Shown here: positions 141 to 33,203 of the stretch, piece by piece
Position numbering within the stretch: position 1 is the first letter of the stretch
How the letters are laid out: the number at the start of each line of letters is the position of its first letter
Assembly (NCBI GenBank): GCA_027021085.1
Contig: JALUVB010000079.1
Location: 1 to 33,225 of the forward strand
Direction of reading: 5' to 3'
DNA length: 33,225 bases
DNA from: a bacterium
GTDB taxonomy: Bacteria > CAIJMQ01 > JAADFP01
The notes under the pieces: generated by a model
The model's input: only the letters and a program-made list of their open reading frames with translations
Databases searched by the model: none
What the model was told of the DNA's origin: nothing
Program-made: the position numbers and the translations under genes

Positions 141-196
141 GTAGCGAGTAGCATTTTAGACTATAGACGGTAGACTATAGACGTTAGACTGGGAGA
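141..196 (+). repeat. Phased heptamer array (GTAGCNN)x2 then (TAGACNN)x5; 157-196 is copy A of a dispersed 40-nt element
   Basis: GTAGC starts at 141 and 148. TAGAC starts at 157, 164, 171, 178 and 185, an exact 7-nt spacing. 157-196 (TAGACTATAGACGGTAGACTATAGACGTTAGACTGGGAGA) differs from 15594-15633 at only 2 of 40 positions. Confidence 0.9.
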
Positions 197-200
197 GGGG

Positions 201-326
201 ATGCAGAATGCAGAACACAGGTGGGAGAATAGGTGCCCCGACAGGTGCCGGGATAGGGAACTGGCAACTAACAACTCACAACTCACAACTTTTAGACCAT
301 AGACTGCGGTCAGTAGTAAGTAGTGA
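201..326 (+). repeat. Patchwork of further phased heptamer arrays
   Basis: ATGCAGA x2 at 201-214. CAACTNA x4 with CAACT at 265, 272, 279 and 286. TAGACNN x2 at 293 and 300. GTAGTRA x2 at 313 and 320. Confidence 0.85.
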
Positions 327-375
327 AGGAAAAGCGAAATACAAGATATAAGCAGGGAATAGGTGCCCCAACAGG
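227..375 (+). repeat. Pair of 19-nt direct repeats GAATAGGTGCCCC(G/A)ACAGG
   Basis: 227-245 and 357-375 are identical at 18 of 19 positions and lie 130 nt apart in non-coding DNA. Confidence 0.8.
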
Positions 376-4649: not shown

Positions 4650-5128
4650 GCAGGGTGCTTCTCTTCTATCTGGGAGGATTGCTGCTTATCTTCCTGGAAT
4701 TATATCTTCCCGGGGGAATACTGGGTACCATAGGAAGCATTTTAATTGTAGTGAGCATGGTATATGCGTATCGCGTTTTACCCCAGCAGGCGCCTTTAAT
4801 TATTGCTTTCCAGATTTTACTGGGAGGGATTCTTATTTATATCTGGATAAAACAGTTTCACCGCACGCGCTGGGGGAAGAGGTTAATCCTGGAGGAAAAG
4901 GAGGATACTAACAGGGGATATGTGGCCCAGGAAAAAGAGCTGGAGAAGCTGGTGGGGAAGGAGGGAATCACCCTTACCCTGCTCAGGCCGGTGGGTATAG
5001 CAGAAATAGAAGGCAAGAGAGTAGGAGTGGTAACCGAAGGGATATATGTAGGGAAAGGGAAAAAGGTGCGGGTTTTGGAAGTAAGCGGCAATCAGCTGAA
5101 AGTCAAGGAGATTGAAGAAGATGCTTGA
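4646..5128 (+). CDS. Short NfeD-family membrane protein (TM helices plus C-terminal OB-fold)
   Basis: Hydrophobic N-terminal half, then GKEGITLTLLRPVGIAEIEGKRVGVVTEGIYVGKGKKVRVLEV, an NfeD C-terminal barrel. ATG 4646 overlaps the response-regulator stop (ATGA). The ORF track's GTG at 4631 is an alternative start. Confidence 0.8.
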   Translation: MSRVLLFYLGGLLLIFLELYLPGGILGTIGSILIVVSMVYAYRVLPQQAPLIIAFQILLGGILIYIWIKQFHRTRWGKRLILEEKEDTNRGYVAQEKELEKLVGKEGITLTLLRPVGIAEIEGKRVGVVTEGIYVGKGKKVRVLEVSGNQLKVKEIEEDA

Positions 5129-7144: not shown

Positions 7145-8739
7145 GAAGAGTTACTGCTTTTATCCTGTTAATCATTACCCTGAGTTTCTCTCTTTATGCG
7201 GGGGAAAAGCCGGAGTATGGAGGGGCTATCGTGGTGGGCTCCATTGGCGATGCTTCCACGCTTATCCCTTTCGTAGCCTCAGACTCAGCCTCTCAGGACA
7301 TTTGTGGGCTAATCTACAATGGGCTCTTAAAATACGATAAAAACCTTGAGCTGACCGGGGACCTGGCAGAATCCTGGGAGGTCTCCCCGGATAATTTAAC
7401 TATTACCTTCCACCTGAGAAAAGGGGTGAAGTGGCAGGATGGCAAGCCTTTTACTGCAAAGGATTGCCTTTTTACCTACCAGAAGCTAATCGATCCCAAG
7501 GTGCGTACTCCCTATGCTTCAAGTTTTCTCCTGGTAAAAGAAGCAAAGGTTATAGATGACTATACTTTCCAGGTAACCTACAAAGAGCCATTCTCTCCGG
7601 GGCTCTCTTCCTGGACCATGTGGATAGTGCCTGAGCATCTCTTAAAGGGAGAAGACCTGAATACCACTTCCTACGCCAGGAATCCCGTGGGCACGGGCCC
7701 CTATAAATTTCTGCAATGGAAAACAGGCGACAAGATTGTTTTAAAATCCAACCCGGATTACTTTGAAGGAAGCCCCTATATTTCCCGTTACATCTACCGA
7801 ATTATTCCTGACCAGGCCACCATGTTCATGGAGCTCAGGGCAGGAGGAATAGATGAGATGGGGCTTACCCCCTACCAGTTCAAATTGCAGACGAACTCTC
7901 CCTTTTTCCGGCGTAATTTCCGGAAATTTCGCTATCCCAGTTTCGGCTACACTTACCTGGGGTATAACCTGAATAACCCCTTGTTTAAAAGTAAAAAAGT
8001 TCGCCAGGCACTTACCATGGCCATTGACAGGGAAGCCATAATTGACGGAATCCTCCTGGGGCTGGGCACTGTCTCCACGGGCCCCTTTGTTCCCTCCTCC
8101 TGGGCTTACAACCCCGAGGTAAAGCCTTTTCCCTACAATCCGGACAAAGCTAAAGAGATGTTAAAAGAGGAAGGATGGTGGGACCATGACGGAGACGGAA
8201 TTATTGATAAGGACGGTGTTCCCTTCTCCTTCACCATCGTTACCAACCAGGGGAATATACAGCGAAAAAAATGCGCAGAGATTATCCAGGATAACCTGGG
8301 TAAAATCGGGATTAAGGTAGAGATAAGAATAATAGAGTGGGCTACTTTTTTAAGTGAATTCATTGATAAGAAGAAATTTGATGCAGTGATATTGGGCTGG
8401 GCTGGATTGGCAGGTGACCCGGACCCCTACGATATATGGCATTCCTCCCGCACCCGGGAAGGAGAATTCAATTTTATCTCTTACAAAAATAAAGAAGTTG
8501 ATGAACTGTTGGTAAAGGCAAGGAGAACCTTTGACCTGGAAGAGCGAAAAAGATACTACCACAGGATTCACCGGCTAATCTATGATGACCAACCCTACAC
8601 CTTTCTCTATGTTCCTGATTCCCTGGTAATTATACATAGGCGATTCAGGGGGGTAGAACTTGCTCCTGCGGGTATTGGGTATAATTTCATAAAATGGTGG
8701 GTTCCCCGTAAAGAACAGAAGTACCACTTTGAGAAGTGA
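7141..8739 (+). CDS. ABC transporter substrate-binding protein, family 5 (peptide/nickel, DppA/OppA-like)
   Basis: 532 aa with an N-terminal signal or anchor. Family-5 hallmarks as I recognise them include LLKYDKNLELTGDLAESWEVSPDNLTITFHLRKGVKWQDG, NPVGTGPYKF and GWAGLAGDPDPYDIWHS. No permease or ATPase genes are adjacent. Confidence 0.88.
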   Translation: MRRVTAFILLIITLSFSLYAGEKPEYGGAIVVGSIGDASTLIPFVASDSASQDICGLIYNGLLKYDKNLELTGDLAESWEVSPDNLTITFHLRKGVKWQDGKPFTAKDCLFTYQKLIDPKVRTPYASSFLLVKEAKVIDDYTFQVTYKEPFSPGLSSWTMWIVPEHLLKGEDLNTTSYARNPVGTGPYKFLQWKTGDKIVLKSNPDYFEGSPYISRYIYRIIPDQATMFMELRAGGIDEMGLTPYQFKLQTNSPFFRRNFRKFRYPSFGYTYLGYNLNNPLFKSKKVRQALTMAIDREAIIDGILLGLGTVSTGPFVPSSWAYNPEVKPFPYNPDKAKEMLKEEGWWDHDGDGIIDKDGVPFSFTIVTNQGNIQRKKCAEIIQDNLGKIGIKVEIRIIEWATFLSEFIDKKKFDAVILGWAGLAGDPDPYDIWHSSRTREGEFNFISYKNKEVDELLVKARRTFDLEERKRYYHRIHRLIYDDQPYTFLYVPDSLVIIHRRFRGVELAPAGIGYNFIKWWVPRKEQKYHFEK

Positions 8740-9804: not shown

Positions 9805-9889
9805 GCTACTTACTACTTAATTCACTGTTCACTATTTACTGCTTACTGTTTCCCCGGTCTACAGTCTATAGTCTGTGGTCTATAGTCTA
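9805..9889 (-). repeat. Copy B (reverse orientation) of the composite heptamer element: (TAGACNN)x5, 6-nt gap, (YAGTRAR)x4, (AAGTAGN)x2
   Basis: On the minus strand, TAGACTA TAGACCA CAGACTA TAGACTG TAGACCG occupies 9889 to 9855. CAGTAAG CAGTAAA TAGTGAA CAGTGAA occupies 9848 to 9821, which is 26/28 identical to 15634-15661. AAGTAGT AAGTAGC occupies 9818 to 9805. Confidence 0.9.
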
Positions 9890-9989
9890 AAATCCCCCTC
9901 ACTACTATCTACTCACTACTGATCGGTGGGTTGCACATGGCGTTAAAGTGAATACTCCAGGATAACCGGGGAGAGACCGGAGGGATTTT

Positions 9990-11124: not shown

Positions 11125-12501
11125 TTATTTTTCTACATTTGTGGTATTTCTCCTGCGGAAATCCTCCGGGTAAAGCCGGTATTTCTTCAGCTTGAGATAA
11201 AGATTCTTCCTGTCTATCCCTGCTTCCAGGGCGGTTTTACTTACGTTCCCTCCGAATTTTTTCAGAAGGGAGGAGAAATAATTTTTCTCAAATTCTTCCA
11301 GTATCCTGTTCTTGCCCTCCTGATAAGAAGAAAAAGAAGGGGTATAATCAGCAAGCGGAATATGGAAGTACTCCTTTTTGAGCGTTTCTCCTTCGCACAA
11401 CACCATTGCTCTCTCTACTAAATTCTCCAGTTCCCGCACGTTTCCGGGCCAGTTATACTGCAGCAAAAGCTGGAGGGCATCCTGCTCTATGTCTTTTATC
11501 TTTTTATTCAGTTTTTGGGAGTAAACTTTTATAAAGTGATTTATCAGAAGCGGAATATCTTCTTTCCTTTCTCTGAGAGGGGGAAGGTGTATGGGGAAAA
11601 CATTCAGGCGAAAATACAGGTCTTCGCGGAATGTCCCTTCCTGCACGGATTCTTTTAAATCCTGGTTGGTGGCCGCTACTACTCGTACATCCACTTTTAT
11701 TACGCGGTTGCTTCCCAGGGGTTCTATTTCTTTTGTCTCCAGAAACCGCAGGAGCTTGGATTGCAGGGAAAGGGAGAGTGAACCTATTTCATCCAGAAAA
11801 AGGGTCCCGTGTTCTGCCAGCTCTATCTTGCCTTTTTTATCCTGCACGGCTCCGGTAAATGTTCCTTTCTTGTGCCCGAATAACTCGCTTTCCAGGAGAT
11901 TCTCCGGTATGGCTGCACAGTTAACCACTATATAGGGGCCGTTTCTGCGCGGGCTGAGCTTGTGTACTGCCCGGGCAACAAGCTCTTTCCCCGTGCCAGT
12001 TTCTCCCCAGATAAGAATGGTGGTGTCCTGCGGAGAAACCTTTTTTACCAGCTGCATGGCTCTTTTCAGCGAATTGCTTTCCCCTACAATCTCACCCTGC
12101 AGGATTTTTTCTTTCAGGCTTATATTTTCCTCTTCCAGGTTTTTCATGTGCAGGGCCTTTTTAACCACCTCTTTCAGCTCTTCCAGGTTCAGCGGTTTAG
12201 TCAAGTAGTGGAATGCTCCGCTTTTCATGGCTTCCACAGCACTCTCCACTGTTCCGAATGCCGTGATGACAATTACCTGGGTGTAAGGATAGATGTCTTT
12301 AATTTTTTTCAGCAGTTCCATTCCATCCATACCGGGCATTTTCAGGTCTGTGATTACTATGTCGTACATGGTATCTTGCATCATTTGCAGTGCTTCCCGG
12401 GAAGAGGTGGCTTTATCCACCTGGTGGCCTTCGTTCTTCAGGTTTATCTCTAAAAGCCGGGTCATCTTGACTTCGTCATCTACGGTAAGTATTCTGCTCA
12501 T
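11125..12501 (-). CDS. Sigma54-dependent response regulator (receiver, AAA+ enhancer-binding domain, Fis-type HTH; NtrC/AtoC family)
   Basis: 458 aa. Receiver ILTVDDE ... IVITDLKMPGMDG. Walker A GETGTGKELVARAVH, GAFTGA-type loop (KKGTFTGA), ESELFGH, WPGNVRELEN. C-terminal HTH GNVSKTALEAGIDRKNLYLKLKKY. Confidence 0.93.
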   Translation of the reverse strand: MSRILTVDDEVKMTRLLEINLKNEGHQVDKATSSREALQMMQDTMYDIVITDLKMPGMDGMELLKKIKDIYPYTQVIVITAFGTVESAVEAMKSGAFHYLTKPLNLEELKEVVKKALHMKNLEEENISLKEKILQGEIVGESNSLKRAMQLVKKVSPQDTTILIWGETGTGKELVARAVHKLSPRRNGPYIVVNCAAIPENLLESELFGHKKGTFTGAVQDKKGKIELAEHGTLFLDEIGSLSLSLQSKLLRFLETKEIEPLGSNRVIKVDVRVVAATNQDLKESVQEGTFREDLYFRLNVFPIHLPPLRERKEDIPLLINHFIKVYSQKLNKKIKDIEQDALQLLLQYNWPGNVRELENLVERAMVLCEGETLKKEYFHIPLADYTPSFSSYQEGKNRILEEFEKNYFSSLLKKFGGNVSKTALEAGIDRKNLYLKLKKYRLYPEDFRRRNTTNVEK

Positions 12502-14240: not shown

Positions 14241-15596
14241 ATGCAAATAGAAGGGGTCGTTTTGAAAAAAATATGCGAGATATTCAGTAAGAATGCTGCC
14301 CCCATTTATCTGGTCGGGGGCTCGGTAAGAGATATGCTCATGGGGAAGGAGAGTGATGACCTGGATTTTGCTACCCCCCTTTCTCCGGAGCAGATGAAAA
14401 AGATTTTTAGAGAGGAAGGAATACGCGTTTACCCGGTGGGCATAGAATTTGGCACTATAGGGGTTATTGTAGAGGGAAAGGAAGTTCATATAACCACTTT
14501 CCGGCGCAAGGAAAAGTACTCTCCCAAAAGCAGGAAGCCACAGGTGGAATTAGGCGGGAGCATAGAAGAAGACCTCTCCCGCCGGGACTTCACGGTGAAT
14601 GCCATGGCTTTAACGCCCCAGGGAGAGCTTATTGACCCGTTCAACGGGCGGGAAGACCTGAAAAAGAAGATACTGAGACCGCCCATAGACCCGGATGCTT
14701 CTTTCTCGGATGACCCCTTGCGTATGCTCAGGGCTTTCCGGTTCCAGTCTCGCCTGGGATTCGAAATAGAGGAGAACACCCTCTCTTCTATAGGGAGAAA
14801 TTCCTTCCGGATGCTGTTTCTTTCTCCTGAGAGAATCCAGGTGGAAATGGATAAAATACTAACGGGAGAGTTTGTGAGGAAGGCTCTGGAGGGTATAGTG
14901 GAAAGCAGGCTGGCGAGTTTTTTCCTGCACGAACTTGTTCCGCTAAAAGGTTTACATCAGTCAACCGAATTTCACCATAAAGATGTCTGGAAGCATACCC
15001 TAAGGGTGGTAGAGAATGTTGTCCCGGAACCCCGTCTGCGCTGGGCAGCACTTTTGCACGATATAGCTAAACCCTATACCCGGAGCATAGAAAACAAGGA
15101 GATTCATTTTTACCGCCACGAAGAACTGGGAGCGAAGATTGCCTACTATGTATTAACCCGTCTCCGATACCCCAAGGAATTCATAAAAAAGGTCTGCTTC
15201 TTGATAGCACACCACATGCGGCCTGCTTTCTATGCTTCCAACTGGACGGATTCCGCGGTAAGAAGATTCATGCGGGATATGGGAGAGAACCTGGCTGATG
15301 TTATTACTCTGGCCAGGGCAGATATTACTTCTTACCGCCCGGAACGGGTGAAAAAGAGAATAGAATTGCTGGAGGAACTGGAAAAGAGAATAGAAGAATT
15401 TCAATCCTTTAAAGAAGTTACCTATCCGGTGGATGGGAAAGAGATAATGGAAAGGTTTAATATTGCCCCTGGGCCCCTGGTGGGAAAGATTAAAGAATGC
15501 ATCAGGGAAGGGGTAGAAAAAGGAGAACTGCCCGTGGAGTCTCCCGATAAAGAAGTCTACTTCCGGTACGCAGAAAATAAGCTGAGGCTGATTTAG
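14241..15596 (+). CDS. cca: CCA-adding tRNA nucleotidyltransferase / poly(A) polymerase family with HD domain
   Basis: 451 aa. Nucleotidyltransferase motif YLVGGSVRDMLMG..DDLDFAT, RRDFTVNAMAL, and HD motif HHKDVWKHTL ... LLHDIAKP. Both tRNA genes in the window lack an encoded CCA. Confidence 0.9.
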   Translation: MQIEGVVLKKICEIFSKNAAPIYLVGGSVRDMLMGKESDDLDFATPLSPEQMKKIFREEGIRVYPVGIEFGTIGVIVEGKEVHITTFRRKEKYSPKSRKPQVELGGSIEEDLSRRDFTVNAMALTPQGELIDPFNGREDLKKKILRPPIDPDASFSDDPLRMLRAFRFQSRLGFEIEENTLSSIGRNSFRMLFLSPERIQVEMDKILTGEFVRKALEGIVESRLASFFLHELVPLKGLHQSTEFHHKDVWKHTLRVVENVVPEPRLRWAALLHDIAKPYTRSIENKEIHFYRHEELGAKIAYYVLTRLRYPKEFIKKVCFLIAHHMRPAFYASNWTDSAVRRFMRDMGENLADVITLARADITSYRPERVKKRIELLEELEKRIEEFQSFKEVTYPVDGKEIMERFNIAPGPLVGKIKECIREGVEKGELPVESPDKEVYFRYAENKLRLI

Positions 15597-15661
15597 ACTA
15601 TAGACCTTAGACTATAGACGTTAGACTGGGAGATAGTGAGCAGTAAATAGTGAACAGTGAA
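15594..15661 (+). repeat. Copy C of the composite heptamer element: (TAGACNN)x5, 5-nt gap, (YAGTRAR)x4
   Basis: TAGAC starts at 15594, 15601, 15608, 15615 and 15622. The first TAG is the cca stop codon. TAGTGAG CAGTAAA TAGTGAA CAGTGAA lies at 15634-15661. It is 38/40 identical to 157-196 and matches the reverse complement of 9821-9889. Confidence 0.92.
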
Positions 15662-15672
15662 TGGAGGTTTGG

Positions 15673-15696
15673 CATCCTGGTTCCCTGGTTTTGTGG
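15673..15696 (+). repeat. Short octamer array NNNCCTGG-like x3
   Basis: CATCCTGG TTCCCTGG TTTTGTGG, three consecutive 8-nt units. Confidence 0.6.
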
Positions 15697-15921
15697 AGGA
15701 ACAGGCAGAAGCTTGCGCAGGAATGACGGAGAGTGGGTAGAGGGGGAAGGTTACCGGTAGTAAGCAAAGATAATGTGGAATCCTGCTTCCGCAAGAATAG
15801 CAGATGCAAGGATAATGAGTTAGGAGTGGTTAGTTTGTAGTTACCCGGTTAGGTTGATTTTAGGGGTGGTTGAATTATTGGGGTAGATTTATTTCTTCTT
15901 TTTTAATAAAATTATAGCGGC

Positions 15922-29705: not shown

Positions 29706-30194
29706 ATGAGTTATAGGTTTTTAGTTTCTAATCTGAGAAAGGGGCCAGGGAGAAAGCAATCAGTGAGTGTTTTCCCCGCTCACAAATCACAACTCGCATT
29801 TCCCTCCCTCACTACTCACAACTCACAACCCGCTACTAATAATAAGAGGGGCTTCACCCTTATTGAACTCATGGTAGTCATAGCCATAATCGTGCTTCTG
29901 GCCGGAGTGATGATTCCGAACTATATAAAAAACATGGAGAAAGCCAAGTTAGCCAAGGCCAAGGCAGATATAGAAATTCTCATCAAGGCCATAACTCTTT
30001 ACAGGGTGGATAGCGAAGAATTTCCTTCCTCTCTCAGCGACCTTACCTCGGGAACTCACCCTTACCTGGCAAGGGGTATTCCTCCAAGCCCATGGGGTGG
30101 TCCTTACACTTACTCGTTGTCTACTAACTCGTATACCATAGAAGCAAAGGATTCGCAGGGGAAAGTAAAATATTCGGAAACCATAAAATTTTAG
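29706..30194 (+). CDS. GspG-like major pseudopilin / type IV pilin with prepilin (class III) signal and an unusually long leader
   Basis: KRG|FTLIELMVVIAIIVLLAG with E at +5. GspG-type body (ADIEILIKAITLYRVDSEEFPSSLSDL ... PSPWGGPYTY). The leader is 49 aa from ATG 29706, or 30 aa from in-frame GTG 29763. Confidence 0.85.
   Translation: MSYRFLVSNLRKGPGRKQSVSVFPAHKSQLAFPSLTTHNSQPATNNKRGFTLIELMVVIAIIVLLAGVMIPNYIKNMEKAKLAKAKADIEILIKAITLYRVDSEEFPSSLSDLTSGTHPYLARGIPPSPWGGPYTYSLSTNSYTIEAKDSQGKVKYSETIKF
29780..29842 (+). repeat. Heptamer array inside the leader-coding part of the first pseudopilin gene
   Basis: TCACAAA TCACAAC TCGCATT TCCCTCC at 29780-29807, then CTCACTA CTCACAA CTCACAA CCCGCTA CTAATAA at 29808-29842. 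This is the same CAACTCA family as 265-292. CCCGCTACT also occurs at 9802-9810. Confidence 0.8.
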
Positions 30195-30816: not shown

Positions 30817-30837
30817 AAGTTATTAGTTGTGAGTTGA
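30817..30837 (+). repeat. (NAGTTNN)x3 heptamer array abutting the start codon of the third pilin gene
   Basis: AAGTTAT TAGTTGT GAGTTGA with AGTT at 30818, 30825 and 30832. It is the reverse complement of the CAACTNA family and ends 3 nt before ATG 30841. Confidence 0.8.
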
Positions 30838-32132: not shown

Positions 32133-32775
32133 GAGGGACCAAGGCTTCACCCTCATTGAAATGCTGGTGGCCGTGGCTATTCTGGCTATCATTGGCACCT
32201 CCTTTTATGCCATTTTCCAGGGCTCATTGGTTTCTTCCAACAAGGGGATGAATCTTGCCTTGGTCTCTTCCAATCTTCGCGGAGCCATGGATTACATTAT
32301 TAAAGACCTTAAAAATGCCGTGGACCCGGAATCAACAGGGAGAACGAATTTTTTCTTCGTAGGAGGAAAGAATAATCAATCTTATATGATGTTTGTAGTC
32401 CCAAATGAGGAAGGGGGTTACCAGGTAGTACTTTACACTCACTCAGAGGATGTCAGTGCTCCCGTGTATGCCGGTACTTCTCGGCAAATTTTGTTCAGGG
32501 CCACCCGGAAGTTGGAGGGGATAGATGTTAAGAGTCAACTTTACGGCACTACTCCGGTTTTCCCTCCTTTTGATGCTACCTGGGTTCAGGGAGATGATGA
32601 ACTGGCTATCCATATAAGTGGGGTTGAATTAAAATTCCAGGGAGAGAATGACTGGGATGATACAGGGCTTCTTCCTCTCTATGTTAATGTGAAACTTACC
32701 TCCACCTATGGCAAGGGAGAACTGGGGCAACAAAAGGAAATGGTTATGGAGGACACGGTGTATCTCAGGAAGTGA
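32119..32775 (+). CDS. GspJ/PilW-like minor pseudopilin
   Basis: MFCPKRDQG|FTLIEMLVAVAILAIIG. I start it at ATG 32119; the track's 32089 start adds 10 hydrophobic residues ahead of the leader. Confidence 0.78.
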   Translation: MFCPKRDQGFTLIEMLVAVAILAIIGTSFYAIFQGSLVSSNKGMNLALVSSNLRGAMDYIIKDLKNAVDPESTGRTNFFFVGGKNNQSYMMFVVPNEEGGYQVVLYTHSEDVSAPVYAGTSRQILFRATRKLEGIDVKSQLYGTTPVFPPFDATWVQGDDELAIHISGVELKFQGENDWDDTGLLPLYVNVKLTSTYGKGELGQQKEMVMEDTVYLRK

Positions 32776-33140
32776 TGAGTGACAAGGTGAAGACTCATAA
32801 GGATTTAGAGGTTTGGAAAAAACCTATTGATTTAGTAGAAGAAGTTTACAAAATTACAGAAAAATTCTCCCAAAAGGAAAAGTACGGATTAACTTTTCAA
32901 ATGAGGAATGCAGCTATTTCCATCCCGAGCAATATTGCAGAAGGGGCAGCAAGAAACTCAACGAAAGAATTTATACAATTTTTATATATAGCATTAGGTT
33001 CTTTATCCGAATTAGAAACACAACTTTTAATTGCTCAAAGAATAAAATATTTGTCAGAGTCATCGGTTTTGGAAAGATTAGAAAAATTAATGATCCTACT
33101 TATAGGACTTATAAATAGCCTTGAGAGGAAGAACAAATGA
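32772..33140 (+). CDS. Four-helix-bundle protein (23S rRNA intervening-sequence protein family, TIGR02436/PF05635; Avd-like)
   Basis: 122 aa. HKDLEVWKKPIDLVEEVYKITEKFSQKEKYGLTFQMRNAAISIPSNIAEGAARNSTKEFIQFLYIALGSLSELETQLLIAQRIKYL matches the family consensus as I know it. The gene is visibly more AT-rich than its neighbours. Its start overlaps the preceding pilin stop. Confidence 0.9.
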   Translation: MMSDKVKTHKDLEVWKKPIDLVEEVYKITEKFSQKEKYGLTFQMRNAAISIPSNIAEGAARNSTKEFIQFLYIALGSLSELETQLLIAQRIKYLSESSVLERLEKLMILLIGLINSLERKNK

Positions 33141-33147
33141 AAAGACC

Positions 33148-33203
33148 TTGTCACTCTGTACCCTTATCACTTTATCACTTTCTCCCTTTGTCATCTTCTT
33201 CCG
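33148..33203 (+). repeat. Phased octamer array downstream of the four-helix-bundle gene
   Basis: TTGTCACT CTGTACCC TTATCACT TTATCACT TTCTCCCT TTGTCATC TTCTTCCG, seven consecutive 8-nt units on a G-poor strand. Confidence 0.8.

Follow-up and report, generated by a model that had tools for sequence, protein, structure and literature searches.

Among the intergenic heptamer repeats of prokaryotes, the short tandemly repeated repetitive (STRR) sequences of cyanobacteria have the units CCCCAGT, TTGGTCA and CAACAGT (STRR1–3). Mrazek et al. (2007), as that work is reported in PMC4679880, found heptanucleotides to be the most abundant class of long simple sequence repeats in the majority of the prokaryotic genomes they examined, and the same report gives polymerase slippage as the cause proposed for long simple sequence repeats. 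Arrays of TAACTGA occur in Beggiatoaceae, cyanobacteria and Bacteroidetes, and an RNA-binding regulator has been proposed, not shown, to act on them (MacGregor 2015, PMC4679880). Heptamers also occur in an rRNA setting: in the 23S rRNA of Coxiella burnetii, the intervening sequence carries two or three tandem GACAGAT units, their number depending on the strain, upstream of an open reading frame (ORF) for an S23p protein, and it is enclosed by a 28-bp terminal stem in which RNase III cleaves at the first repeat (PMC4990558). The S23p protein of Xanthomonas is a homopentameric toroid (PMC4990558). Here, we relate these systems to a composite heptamer element found in three copies, all of them intergenic, in a 33,225-nt stretch of bacterial DNA (contig JALUVB010000079.1 of assembly GCA_027021085.1, positions 1–33,225, hereafter the window). 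In its fullest form, the element consists of five TAGACNN units (module 1) followed by four YAGTRAR units (module 2).

Judged from its sequence, the element is a dispersed and non-coding mosaic repeat, in which arrays of (TAGACNN)3-7 and (YAGTRAR)3-6 are joined by a conserved junction, and it belongs to the widespread intergenic heptamer class of cyanobacterial STRR, long simple sequence repeats and TAACTGA repeats. With moderate confidence, we regard the copies as solo arms from a family of mosaic repeats that is prone to slippage and tied to intervening-sequence-like cassettes, with no cis-regulatory role of their own. In such a cassette, a purine-rich array stands upstream of a gene and its reverse complement downstream, and pairing of the two would enclose the gene in a long RNA stem, which RNase III would cut in the way known from 23S rRNA intervening sequences. 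On this account, each of the three copies in the window would be an arm lacking partner and cargo, spread between intergenic regions as part of a mosaic repeat; their arrays would change length through replication slippage and, as RNA, would be UAG-rich and unstructured, with stop codons in all three frames.

The cassettes in question are present on the same contig, which encodes two four-helix-bundle proteins of the PF05635/TIGR02436 family (S23p, "23S rRNA intervening sequence protein"), here called s1 and s2. The s2 cassette (window 32768–33182) is complete, with a pilin-like gene on one side and a 1081-aa ORF on the other. The s1 cassette (L122 14905–15346, window-equivalent ~36389–36830) lies between the same 1081-aa ORF and a 1157-aa Laminin_G_3 ORF; its gene (L122 14948–15322), just beyond the window end, is flanked by the arm AAATTAGACTATAGACTTTAGACCATAGACATTAGA and its complement, with units TAGACTA TAGACTT TAGACCA and so on, and the 3' arm overlaps the final codons of the gene (...KKSKV). 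In the minimum-free-energy fold of both cassettes, the arms are predicted to pair as a terminal stem. Since s1 has TAGAC arms and s2 has AGTGATG-type arms, the 5' arms of two cassettes in this genome are of the two heptamer types that make up the composite element. The s1 cassette is kept at the same pilus locus in two relatives (L292 and L293, 75–86% identical), and a near-identical S23p protein in the database carries the label Caldiserica. The closest solved structure to s1 is 2GSC (E=4e-20). By family search, S23p proteins are related to Avd, a protein of diversity-generating retroelements, which binds nucleic acid.

Comparison with the 23S rRNA intervening sequences that hold an S23p ORF, in Coxiella burnetii and Leptospira (PMC4990558), brings out both the likeness and the limits of the analogy. 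Both have stem-forming terminal inverted repeats around an S23p gene and tandem 5' heptamers in a strain-dependent copy number, and the RNase III cut is shown in Coxiella (PMC4990558). Strain dependence is seen here in the s2 5' arm, which has one extra GTGATGA unit in the ENA strain (L122 ~11276–11296); the two strains are 99.9% identical. Unlike the intervening sequences, the cassettes described here reside in mRNA operons or spacers (the pilus cluster, etfB-etfA, two His_biosynth genes, cas10-cmr3), in no case in rRNA. A further difference is that the three copies of the composite have neither a partner arm nor an ORF; their repeat units are the same as those of the cassette arms.

Inverted heptamer arms are a general arrangement around PF05635 genes. 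This follows from gene sets that were blind to arrays, in which PF05635 genes were fetched by protein similarity alone and scored by a simple measure of complementarity (cut-off at least 12), with 30 window genes as controls. Nine of 13 such genes reached the cut-off, against a control maximum of 10 among the 30 genes (Mann–Whitney p=2.6e-5), and so did 32 of 52 distinct PF05635 genes from viral contigs, compared with 0/30 controls (Fisher p=2.5e-9). The arms of the viral-contig genes are tandem repeats, mostly of period 7. Proteins similar to s1 (34 of 810 matches were fetched) mostly terminate in ...KSKV, KSGV or KSKVQSQGSMV, and some have an over-extended N-terminus reading QTIDNRQQTIDNRQ; both these N-termini and the C-terminal endings are translated TAGAC arrays. 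Two s1-like genes fetched independently (L246 and L253) again have TAGAC/GTCTA arms, and s1-like sites include PagL/DUF1844 in an Omnitrophota genome and, for a different gene, etfB/etfA. The s2-like genes (L264–L283), some of them in marine contigs, have AGTGAYG/AGTAACG arms; one, whose protein is annotated Nitrospirae, stands between two genes of the His_biosynth family, probably hisA and hisF.

A tblastn search of 72,556 plasmids returned the PF05635 family in 26 records, mostly cyanobacterial (Nostoc 11, Calothrix 4) with Gemmatirosa and others besides. Inverted heptamer arms were present in seven of the eight plasmid records inspected (seven from cyanobacteria, one from Gemmatirosa), with the lineage-specific units TAGGGTG, GGGAGTA, GGCAGAA, AAGGGAA and AGGAGAT, and one plasmid-borne gene lies between cas10 and cmr3. 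The S23p clade tracks the heptamer type: TAGAC is found with the s1 clade, AGTGA or AGTAAC with the s2 clade, and GGCAGAA and GGGTGTR with clades of their own. TAGAC arms also accompany distant S23p lineages (L033 and L100) and a different cargo, GxxExxY. Taken together, the clade tracking and the shared TAGAC arms indicate that arms and cargo are co-inherited within clades and are not exclusive partners. We found no paper, in the literature searched, that extends the Coxiella rRNA case to non-rRNA cassettes or to heptamer repeats generally.

Approached from the arrays, the same association appears within a far larger population. An exact scan for (TAGACNN)x4 matched at least 119 genome stretches, and the pattern TAGACTA-TAGACNN matched at least 120 metagenome stretches; among the matches listed, arrays of four or more units are hosted by Bacteroidota, Acidobacteriota, Chloroflexota, Gemmatimonadota, Planctomycetota, Nitrospirota, Omnitrophota and others, and arrays of other heptamers often adjoin them. 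One match (L011) is a perfect (TAGACCC)x16 array on chromosome II of Aliivibrio fischeri ES114, a cultured model organism. In 239 loci selected by their arrays, neighbouring opposite arrays are strongly polarised: 51 of them read 5'-TAGAC...GTCTA-3' and 16 the other way round (p=2e-5). Gaps between opposite arrays cluster at two sizes. Those of 0–150 nt are cargo-less hairpins (39 in the TAGAC..GTCTA order versus 8 in the reverse), and those of 350–600 nt (9 versus 0) mostly contain a cargo ORF, which is a PF05635 gene in L033, L100 and L239; one contig (L135/L162/L191) has a gap of this size with no ORF, and L161 holds a truncated PF05635 copy in a longer gap.

In four loci on high-GC metagenome contigs (L138, L164, L193 and L234), the gene within TAGAC/GTCTA inverted arrays encodes a GxxExxY protein (TIGR04256, PD-(D/E)XK fold), giving these arms a second type of cargo; one of the GxxExxY cargo proteins also terminates in ...KSKSKV. 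The association is weaker than for S23p, as GxxExxY genes on plasmids have inverted arrays in only two of six cases and direct flanking repeats in two of six. On plasmids of a Fusobacteria bacterium (L286) and of Prevotella nigrescens (L290), the GxxExxY gene lies between direct repeats of ~50 nt.

Returning to the composite element, the window holds six matches to the TAGACNN pattern and nine to YAGTRAR, where dinucleotide-preserving shuffles lead one to expect 0.00 and 0.06. Tandem Repeats Finder reports period 7 with four to five copies at all three sites, and a 14-nt super-period with 95% matches. The sequence-only reading that had drawn attention to the element was accurate to the base in its coordinates, unit counts, identities (38/40, 30/35 and 26/28) and the cca stop codon with which one array begins, and the phasing it described, a UAG or YAG every 7 nt, is real. 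The coordinates are collected in Table 1. A CRISPR array is ruled out, since the units are 7 nt and contiguous as opposed to repeats of 24–48 nt with unique spacers, and unit size and position rule out a telomere-like or coding repeat.

Table 1. Coordinates of the composite element, associated heptamer modules and the s2 cassette in the window
Feature	Position	Strand	Basis or remark
Module 1, TAGACTA TAGACCT TAGACTA TAGACGT TAGACTG = (TAGACNN)x5	15594-15628	+	TAG at 15594-15596 is the stop of the CCA-adding enzyme ORF 14241-15596
Junction TGGGAGA between the two arrays, sharing the final two bases of module 1	15627-15633	+	Conserved among copies
Module 2, TAGTGAG CAGTAAA TAGTGAA CAGTGAA = (YAGTRAR)x4	15634-15661	+	Sequence, pattern scan
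TCCTGGT-like follow-on module	15662-15696	+	Also 3' of module 2 in related copies L175 4975 and L175 8320rc
Module 2 copy, 26/28 identical, between convergent PD-(D/E)XK and lpxD genes	9821-9848	-	Reverse-complement comparison
Junction of the reverse-strand copy, CGGGGAAA when neighbouring bases are included	9849-9854	-	Junction alignment
Module 1 copy, 30/35 identical	9855-9889	-	Reverse-complement comparison
Additional AGTGAG-type heptamer array (+ strand: CTCACTA...)	9898-9921	-	Tandem Repeats Finder, pattern scan
Module 1 copy with junction, 38/40 identical to 15594-15633, then different modules	157-196	+	Pairwise comparison
ATGCAGA x2 heptamer module	201-215	+	Tandem Repeats Finder
CAACTCA heptamer array, pyrimidine-type strand; same module order in L175	265-290	+	Tandem Repeats Finder
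Short second composite, TAGACCATAGACTG then CAGTAGTAAGTAGTGAA; TAGAC x2 at 293-306, AGTRA-type at 311-327	293-327	+	
s2 5' arm, AGTGATG-type, module-2-like	32768-32792	+	Complementarity
s2, S23p/four-helix-bundle gene (PF05635, TIGR02436)	32775-33140	+	Family search
s2 3' arm, complementary to the 5' arm	33146-33182	+	Complementarity

The composite recurs outside the window. Two contigs of metagenome Ga0256830 (L170 and L175) have the same order of parts, namely a TAGAC array, the junction (C/T)GGGRG(A) and a YAGTRAR array. The TCCTGGT-like module follows the composite in two L175 copies, and REP-like hairpin modules stand near the arrays in L175, L170 and L159. The last of these (also Ga0256830) and L236 have related TAGAC arrays with similar flanking modules and without the junction. 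Counting related contigs, the conserved junction of the repeat unit, TAGAC(T/C)GGGRG(A)-YAGTRA, is present in seven copies, and its pattern matches this lineage only among 293 loci. It has no match in viral contigs, and a phage origin of the composite was rejected on this basis. The genes that flank the related copies show no similarity to those of the window. Because the NN positions, the flank (38/40) and the junction are conserved among copies, the sequences argue for the composite being a unit copied between sites and not a product of independent slippage.

Logan contigs of run SRR8439019 match the window at 100% identity and stop at window positions 379, 9811 and 15626, each inside a repeat region, which points to a multi-copy sequence with many more copies elsewhere in the genome. 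Slippage, for its part, would account for the changes in array length, which are seen as the 7-nt unit indel in the s2 arm and as unit numbers that differ among contigs with an identical encoded protein (L264/L269 and L276–L283).

Set beside the described heptamer repeats, the element shares with STRR and other 7-nt long simple sequence repeats its tandem heptamers, a mostly intergenic position, unit types placed side by side and many dispersed copies. Length changes in 7-nt steps, a trait of that class, are seen here in the s2 arm and among L264/L269 and L276–L283; the arrays of the element itself are equally long in the two strains. The element differs in its units, TAGACNN and YAGTRAR, and in that these also appear as the arms of gene cassettes. 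STRR in the narrow sense, defined by a cyanobacterial host and the STRR1–3 units, does not describe it; the host encodes sigma-54 activators and is for this reason not a cyanobacterium. The TAACTGA repeats are likewise stop-codon-rich intergenic heptamer arrays, scattered across phyla and mixed with other heptamers (PMC4679880). In the BOGUAY genome they lie mostly just 5' of start codons in the forward direction, a rule that the present arrays do not follow, and no link to S23p cassettes is reported for them (PMC4679880). Enterobacterial REP/BIME elements are comparable as short multi-copy modules in variable order, intergenic and in part palindromic, whereas the modules here are tandem heptamers in place of imperfect palindromes of ~35 nt, and no RAYT transposase was seen.

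Nothing in the following results points to a function of the solo copies themselves. Near the three copies, no reverse-complement partner was found, and no RNA structure is predicted for the composite (fold z-scores of +0.86 and +0.10). No terminator, attenuator or alternative structure adjoining the arrays was found, and Rfam has no family for them, only two tRNAs having reached the gathering score. Their positions differ, one copy preceding an operon and the other two following genes. Where the genes on either side of a solo TAGAC array are co-directional, 51 arrays are in sense and 35 in antisense orientation (p=0.105, across many phyla and with crude gene calls), and the five arrays of the composite in L175 4988–5604 (two TAGAC, three YAGTRAR) are antisense to both flanking genes; the rule that the UAG strand is the sense strand does not appear to generalise. 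Above the search threshold, arrays become steadily rarer as unit number rises and do not peak at five units, which leaves a match of five units to a pentamer unsupported.

These results bear directly on an array for attenuation or translation control of the TRAP/HutP type, to which an oligomeric RNA-binding protein dedicated to this task would bind, as the sequence-only reading had suggested. The arrays do resemble those of Bacillus subtilis in their regularly spaced NAG triplets on one strand, with a UAG-N4 spacing like that of HutP sites, and one array starts at a stop codon with two in 3' regions. However, there is no HutP or TRAP (TrpBP) family member among the called genes of 42 kb, no terminator or antiterminator adjoins the arrays, their positions are inconsistent, the composites of L175 are antisense, and the same arrays recur in many phyla in unrelated gene contexts; where arrays are paired, moreover, they form double-stranded stems. 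We therefore consider such a regulator highly improbable. What survives of the proposal is docking by an oligomeric, ring-shaped protein as such, for which the S23p pentamer, by analogy with its relatives, is a concrete candidate encoded twice on the contig. The arrays would then be docking sites for the pentamer, on RNA or DNA, with one heptamer per subunit, and the solo arrays would be extra sites for regulation or cassette mobility. The toroidal shape of S23p proteins (2GSC match; PMC4990558) and their kinship with Avd accord with this, as do the presence on the contig of two cassettes with exactly the two heptamer types of the element, the tracking of protein clade and heptamer type, and the predominance of cyanobacteria, led by repeat-rich Nostoc and Calothrix, among the plasmid matches. 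Against it, TAGAC arms also enclose GxxExxY cargo and distant S23p lineages, the number of units per array ranges from 3 to 45 without a peak at five, stem formation and RNase III cleavage already account for the inverted arrangement, and 97% of the array loci have no S23p gene nearby. We judge docking of this kind unlikely.

It is more unlikely still, in our estimate, that the arrays are pure slippage satellites unrelated to the cassettes, with the shared heptamers a coincidence or a genome-wide mutational preference and the cassettes merely sitting at arrays. Such a view draws on the abundance of heptanucleotide repeats and the slippage proposed for them (Mrazek et al. 2007, to the extent reported in PMC4679880), on the fact that most arrays are solo and on the unit indels observed, but it cannot explain an identity of 38/40 that includes variable positions and flank, nor the shared junction and module order. 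It also leaves aside the polarity of opposite arrays, at cargo-sized gaps in particular, and the inverted arms that are far commoner at PF05635 genes than at controls. The neutral alternative of the sequence-only reading, an STRR-like satellite, nonetheless remains the best fit of what that reading had offered. A further scheme, which we think very improbable, has solo (UAGACNN)n tracts pairing in trans with (NNGUCUA)n arms of other transcripts, such as cassette 3' arms, and so creating RNase III substrates that would couple the stability of unrelated mRNAs. Complementary arms do exist on the same contig, RNase III does cleave stems of this sort in the Coxiella intervening sequence, and solo arms are predicted to be unstructured and hence free to pair; a role at the transcript level nevertheless predicts an orientation bias, and the bias seen is not significant.

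The reading of the copies as solo arms of a cassette-linked mosaic repeat has its own difficulties, which we set out together because all of them weigh against it. A tblastn search found no remnants of S23p or GxxExxY ORFs in the three intergenic regions; as no decayed ORF lies beside the copies, they are not recently emptied cassettes. The PF05635 gene is present in only six of the 239 array-selected loci, so that arrays far outnumber cassettes; the arrays may be primary and the PF05635 genes their guests. The three arrays of the element show no gaps and are of equal length in the two strains compared. The start of many sense arrays falls on a stop codon or only a few bases from one, which leaves room for a function at gene ends. 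A TAG every 7 nt places a stop in all three frames, and arrays would for that reason be tolerated at gene ends. Finally, the element looks more specific than a neutral satellite, given its fixed junction and module order.

A bolder possibility, to which we give some weight while thinking it on balance doubtful, is that heptamer arrays, including those of the cyanobacterial STRR type, are recognition or boundary elements of small selfish gene cassettes that cross phyla with S23p ring or GxxExxY cargo. The cargo proteins would act on the arrays by binding, cleavage or homing, and solo arrays and cargo-less hairpins would be landing sites or non-autonomous derivatives.

A 66-kb ENA contig, 99.9% identical to the window, carries on to window-equivalent position 42132. 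Around the copies are a coaD-like gene, genes for NfeD, flotillin and a solute-binding protein, and then a PD-(D/E)XK protein gene on the plus strand; the minus strand has lpxD and the genes of a histidine kinase and a sigma-54 activator. Next come cca, an isocitrate/isopropylmalate dehydrogenase gene, purA and two tRNAs, and beyond these a type IV pilus/T2SS-like cluster. Extra heptamer arrays of other unit types share the intergenic regions of the three copies. The composite arms at window 157–327 (+) and 9821–9889 (-) are nested and inverted, with TAGAC outside and AGTRA inside, around a 9.5-kb operon, and similar nested arms in L175, at 4988–5055 (+) and 8222–8310 (-), surround a 2.7-kb gene block. 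A giant cassette spanning the 9.5-kb block from coaD to PD-(D/E)XK was considered and dropped, as the copies are too few to distinguish it from chance.

Other modules of the mosaic can be listed alongside. A motif AATAGGTGCCCC(G/A)ACAGG... is present twice, at window 228–252 and 358–383, and the hairpin TAGGCGCCCCGACATACGTCGGGAC takes the equivalent mosaic position in L159 and L175. REP-like hairpin modules (GCAGGAATGAC, GGAATCCTGCTTCCGCAAGAAT, GGATTCCCGCTTGCGCGGGAATGAC and TGTCATGCCTGCGGAAGCAGGCATCC) stand beside heptamer arrays at window 15711–15800, L175 5100–5260 and L159 4400–4500; we take them to resemble the ATTCCC-N8-GGGAAT repeat type. Within the pilus cluster, a CTCACAA heptamer array (window 29806–29837) falls in the over-called 5' end of the pilin ORF 29706–30194, in which the N-methylation motif KRGFTLIELMVV begins at residue 47, and TTGTGAG at window 30822–30836, ~1 kb 3' of this array, is complementary to it.

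By itself, the composite element is one more heptamer satellite family and unremarkable. The heptamer-repeat class was known already; what is new here, among the literature searched, is the association of arrays and cassettes beyond the single Coxiella rRNA case, and it is this association, more than the element alone, that most merits attention. Inverted heptamer arrays around S23p genes are found in cyanobacteria, Nitrospirota, Omnitrophota, Gemmatimonadota, Bacteroidota, viral contigs and some taxonomically unassigned metagenome contigs, and at the loci whose neighbours were examined, S23p genes are often wedged within essential operons. By analogy with the 23S rRNA intervening sequences, this suggests that RNase III processing would let such cassettes sit harmlessly inside operons. 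The association thus joins two puzzles, the abundance of 7-nt tandem repeats in certain phyla and the role of S23p proteins.

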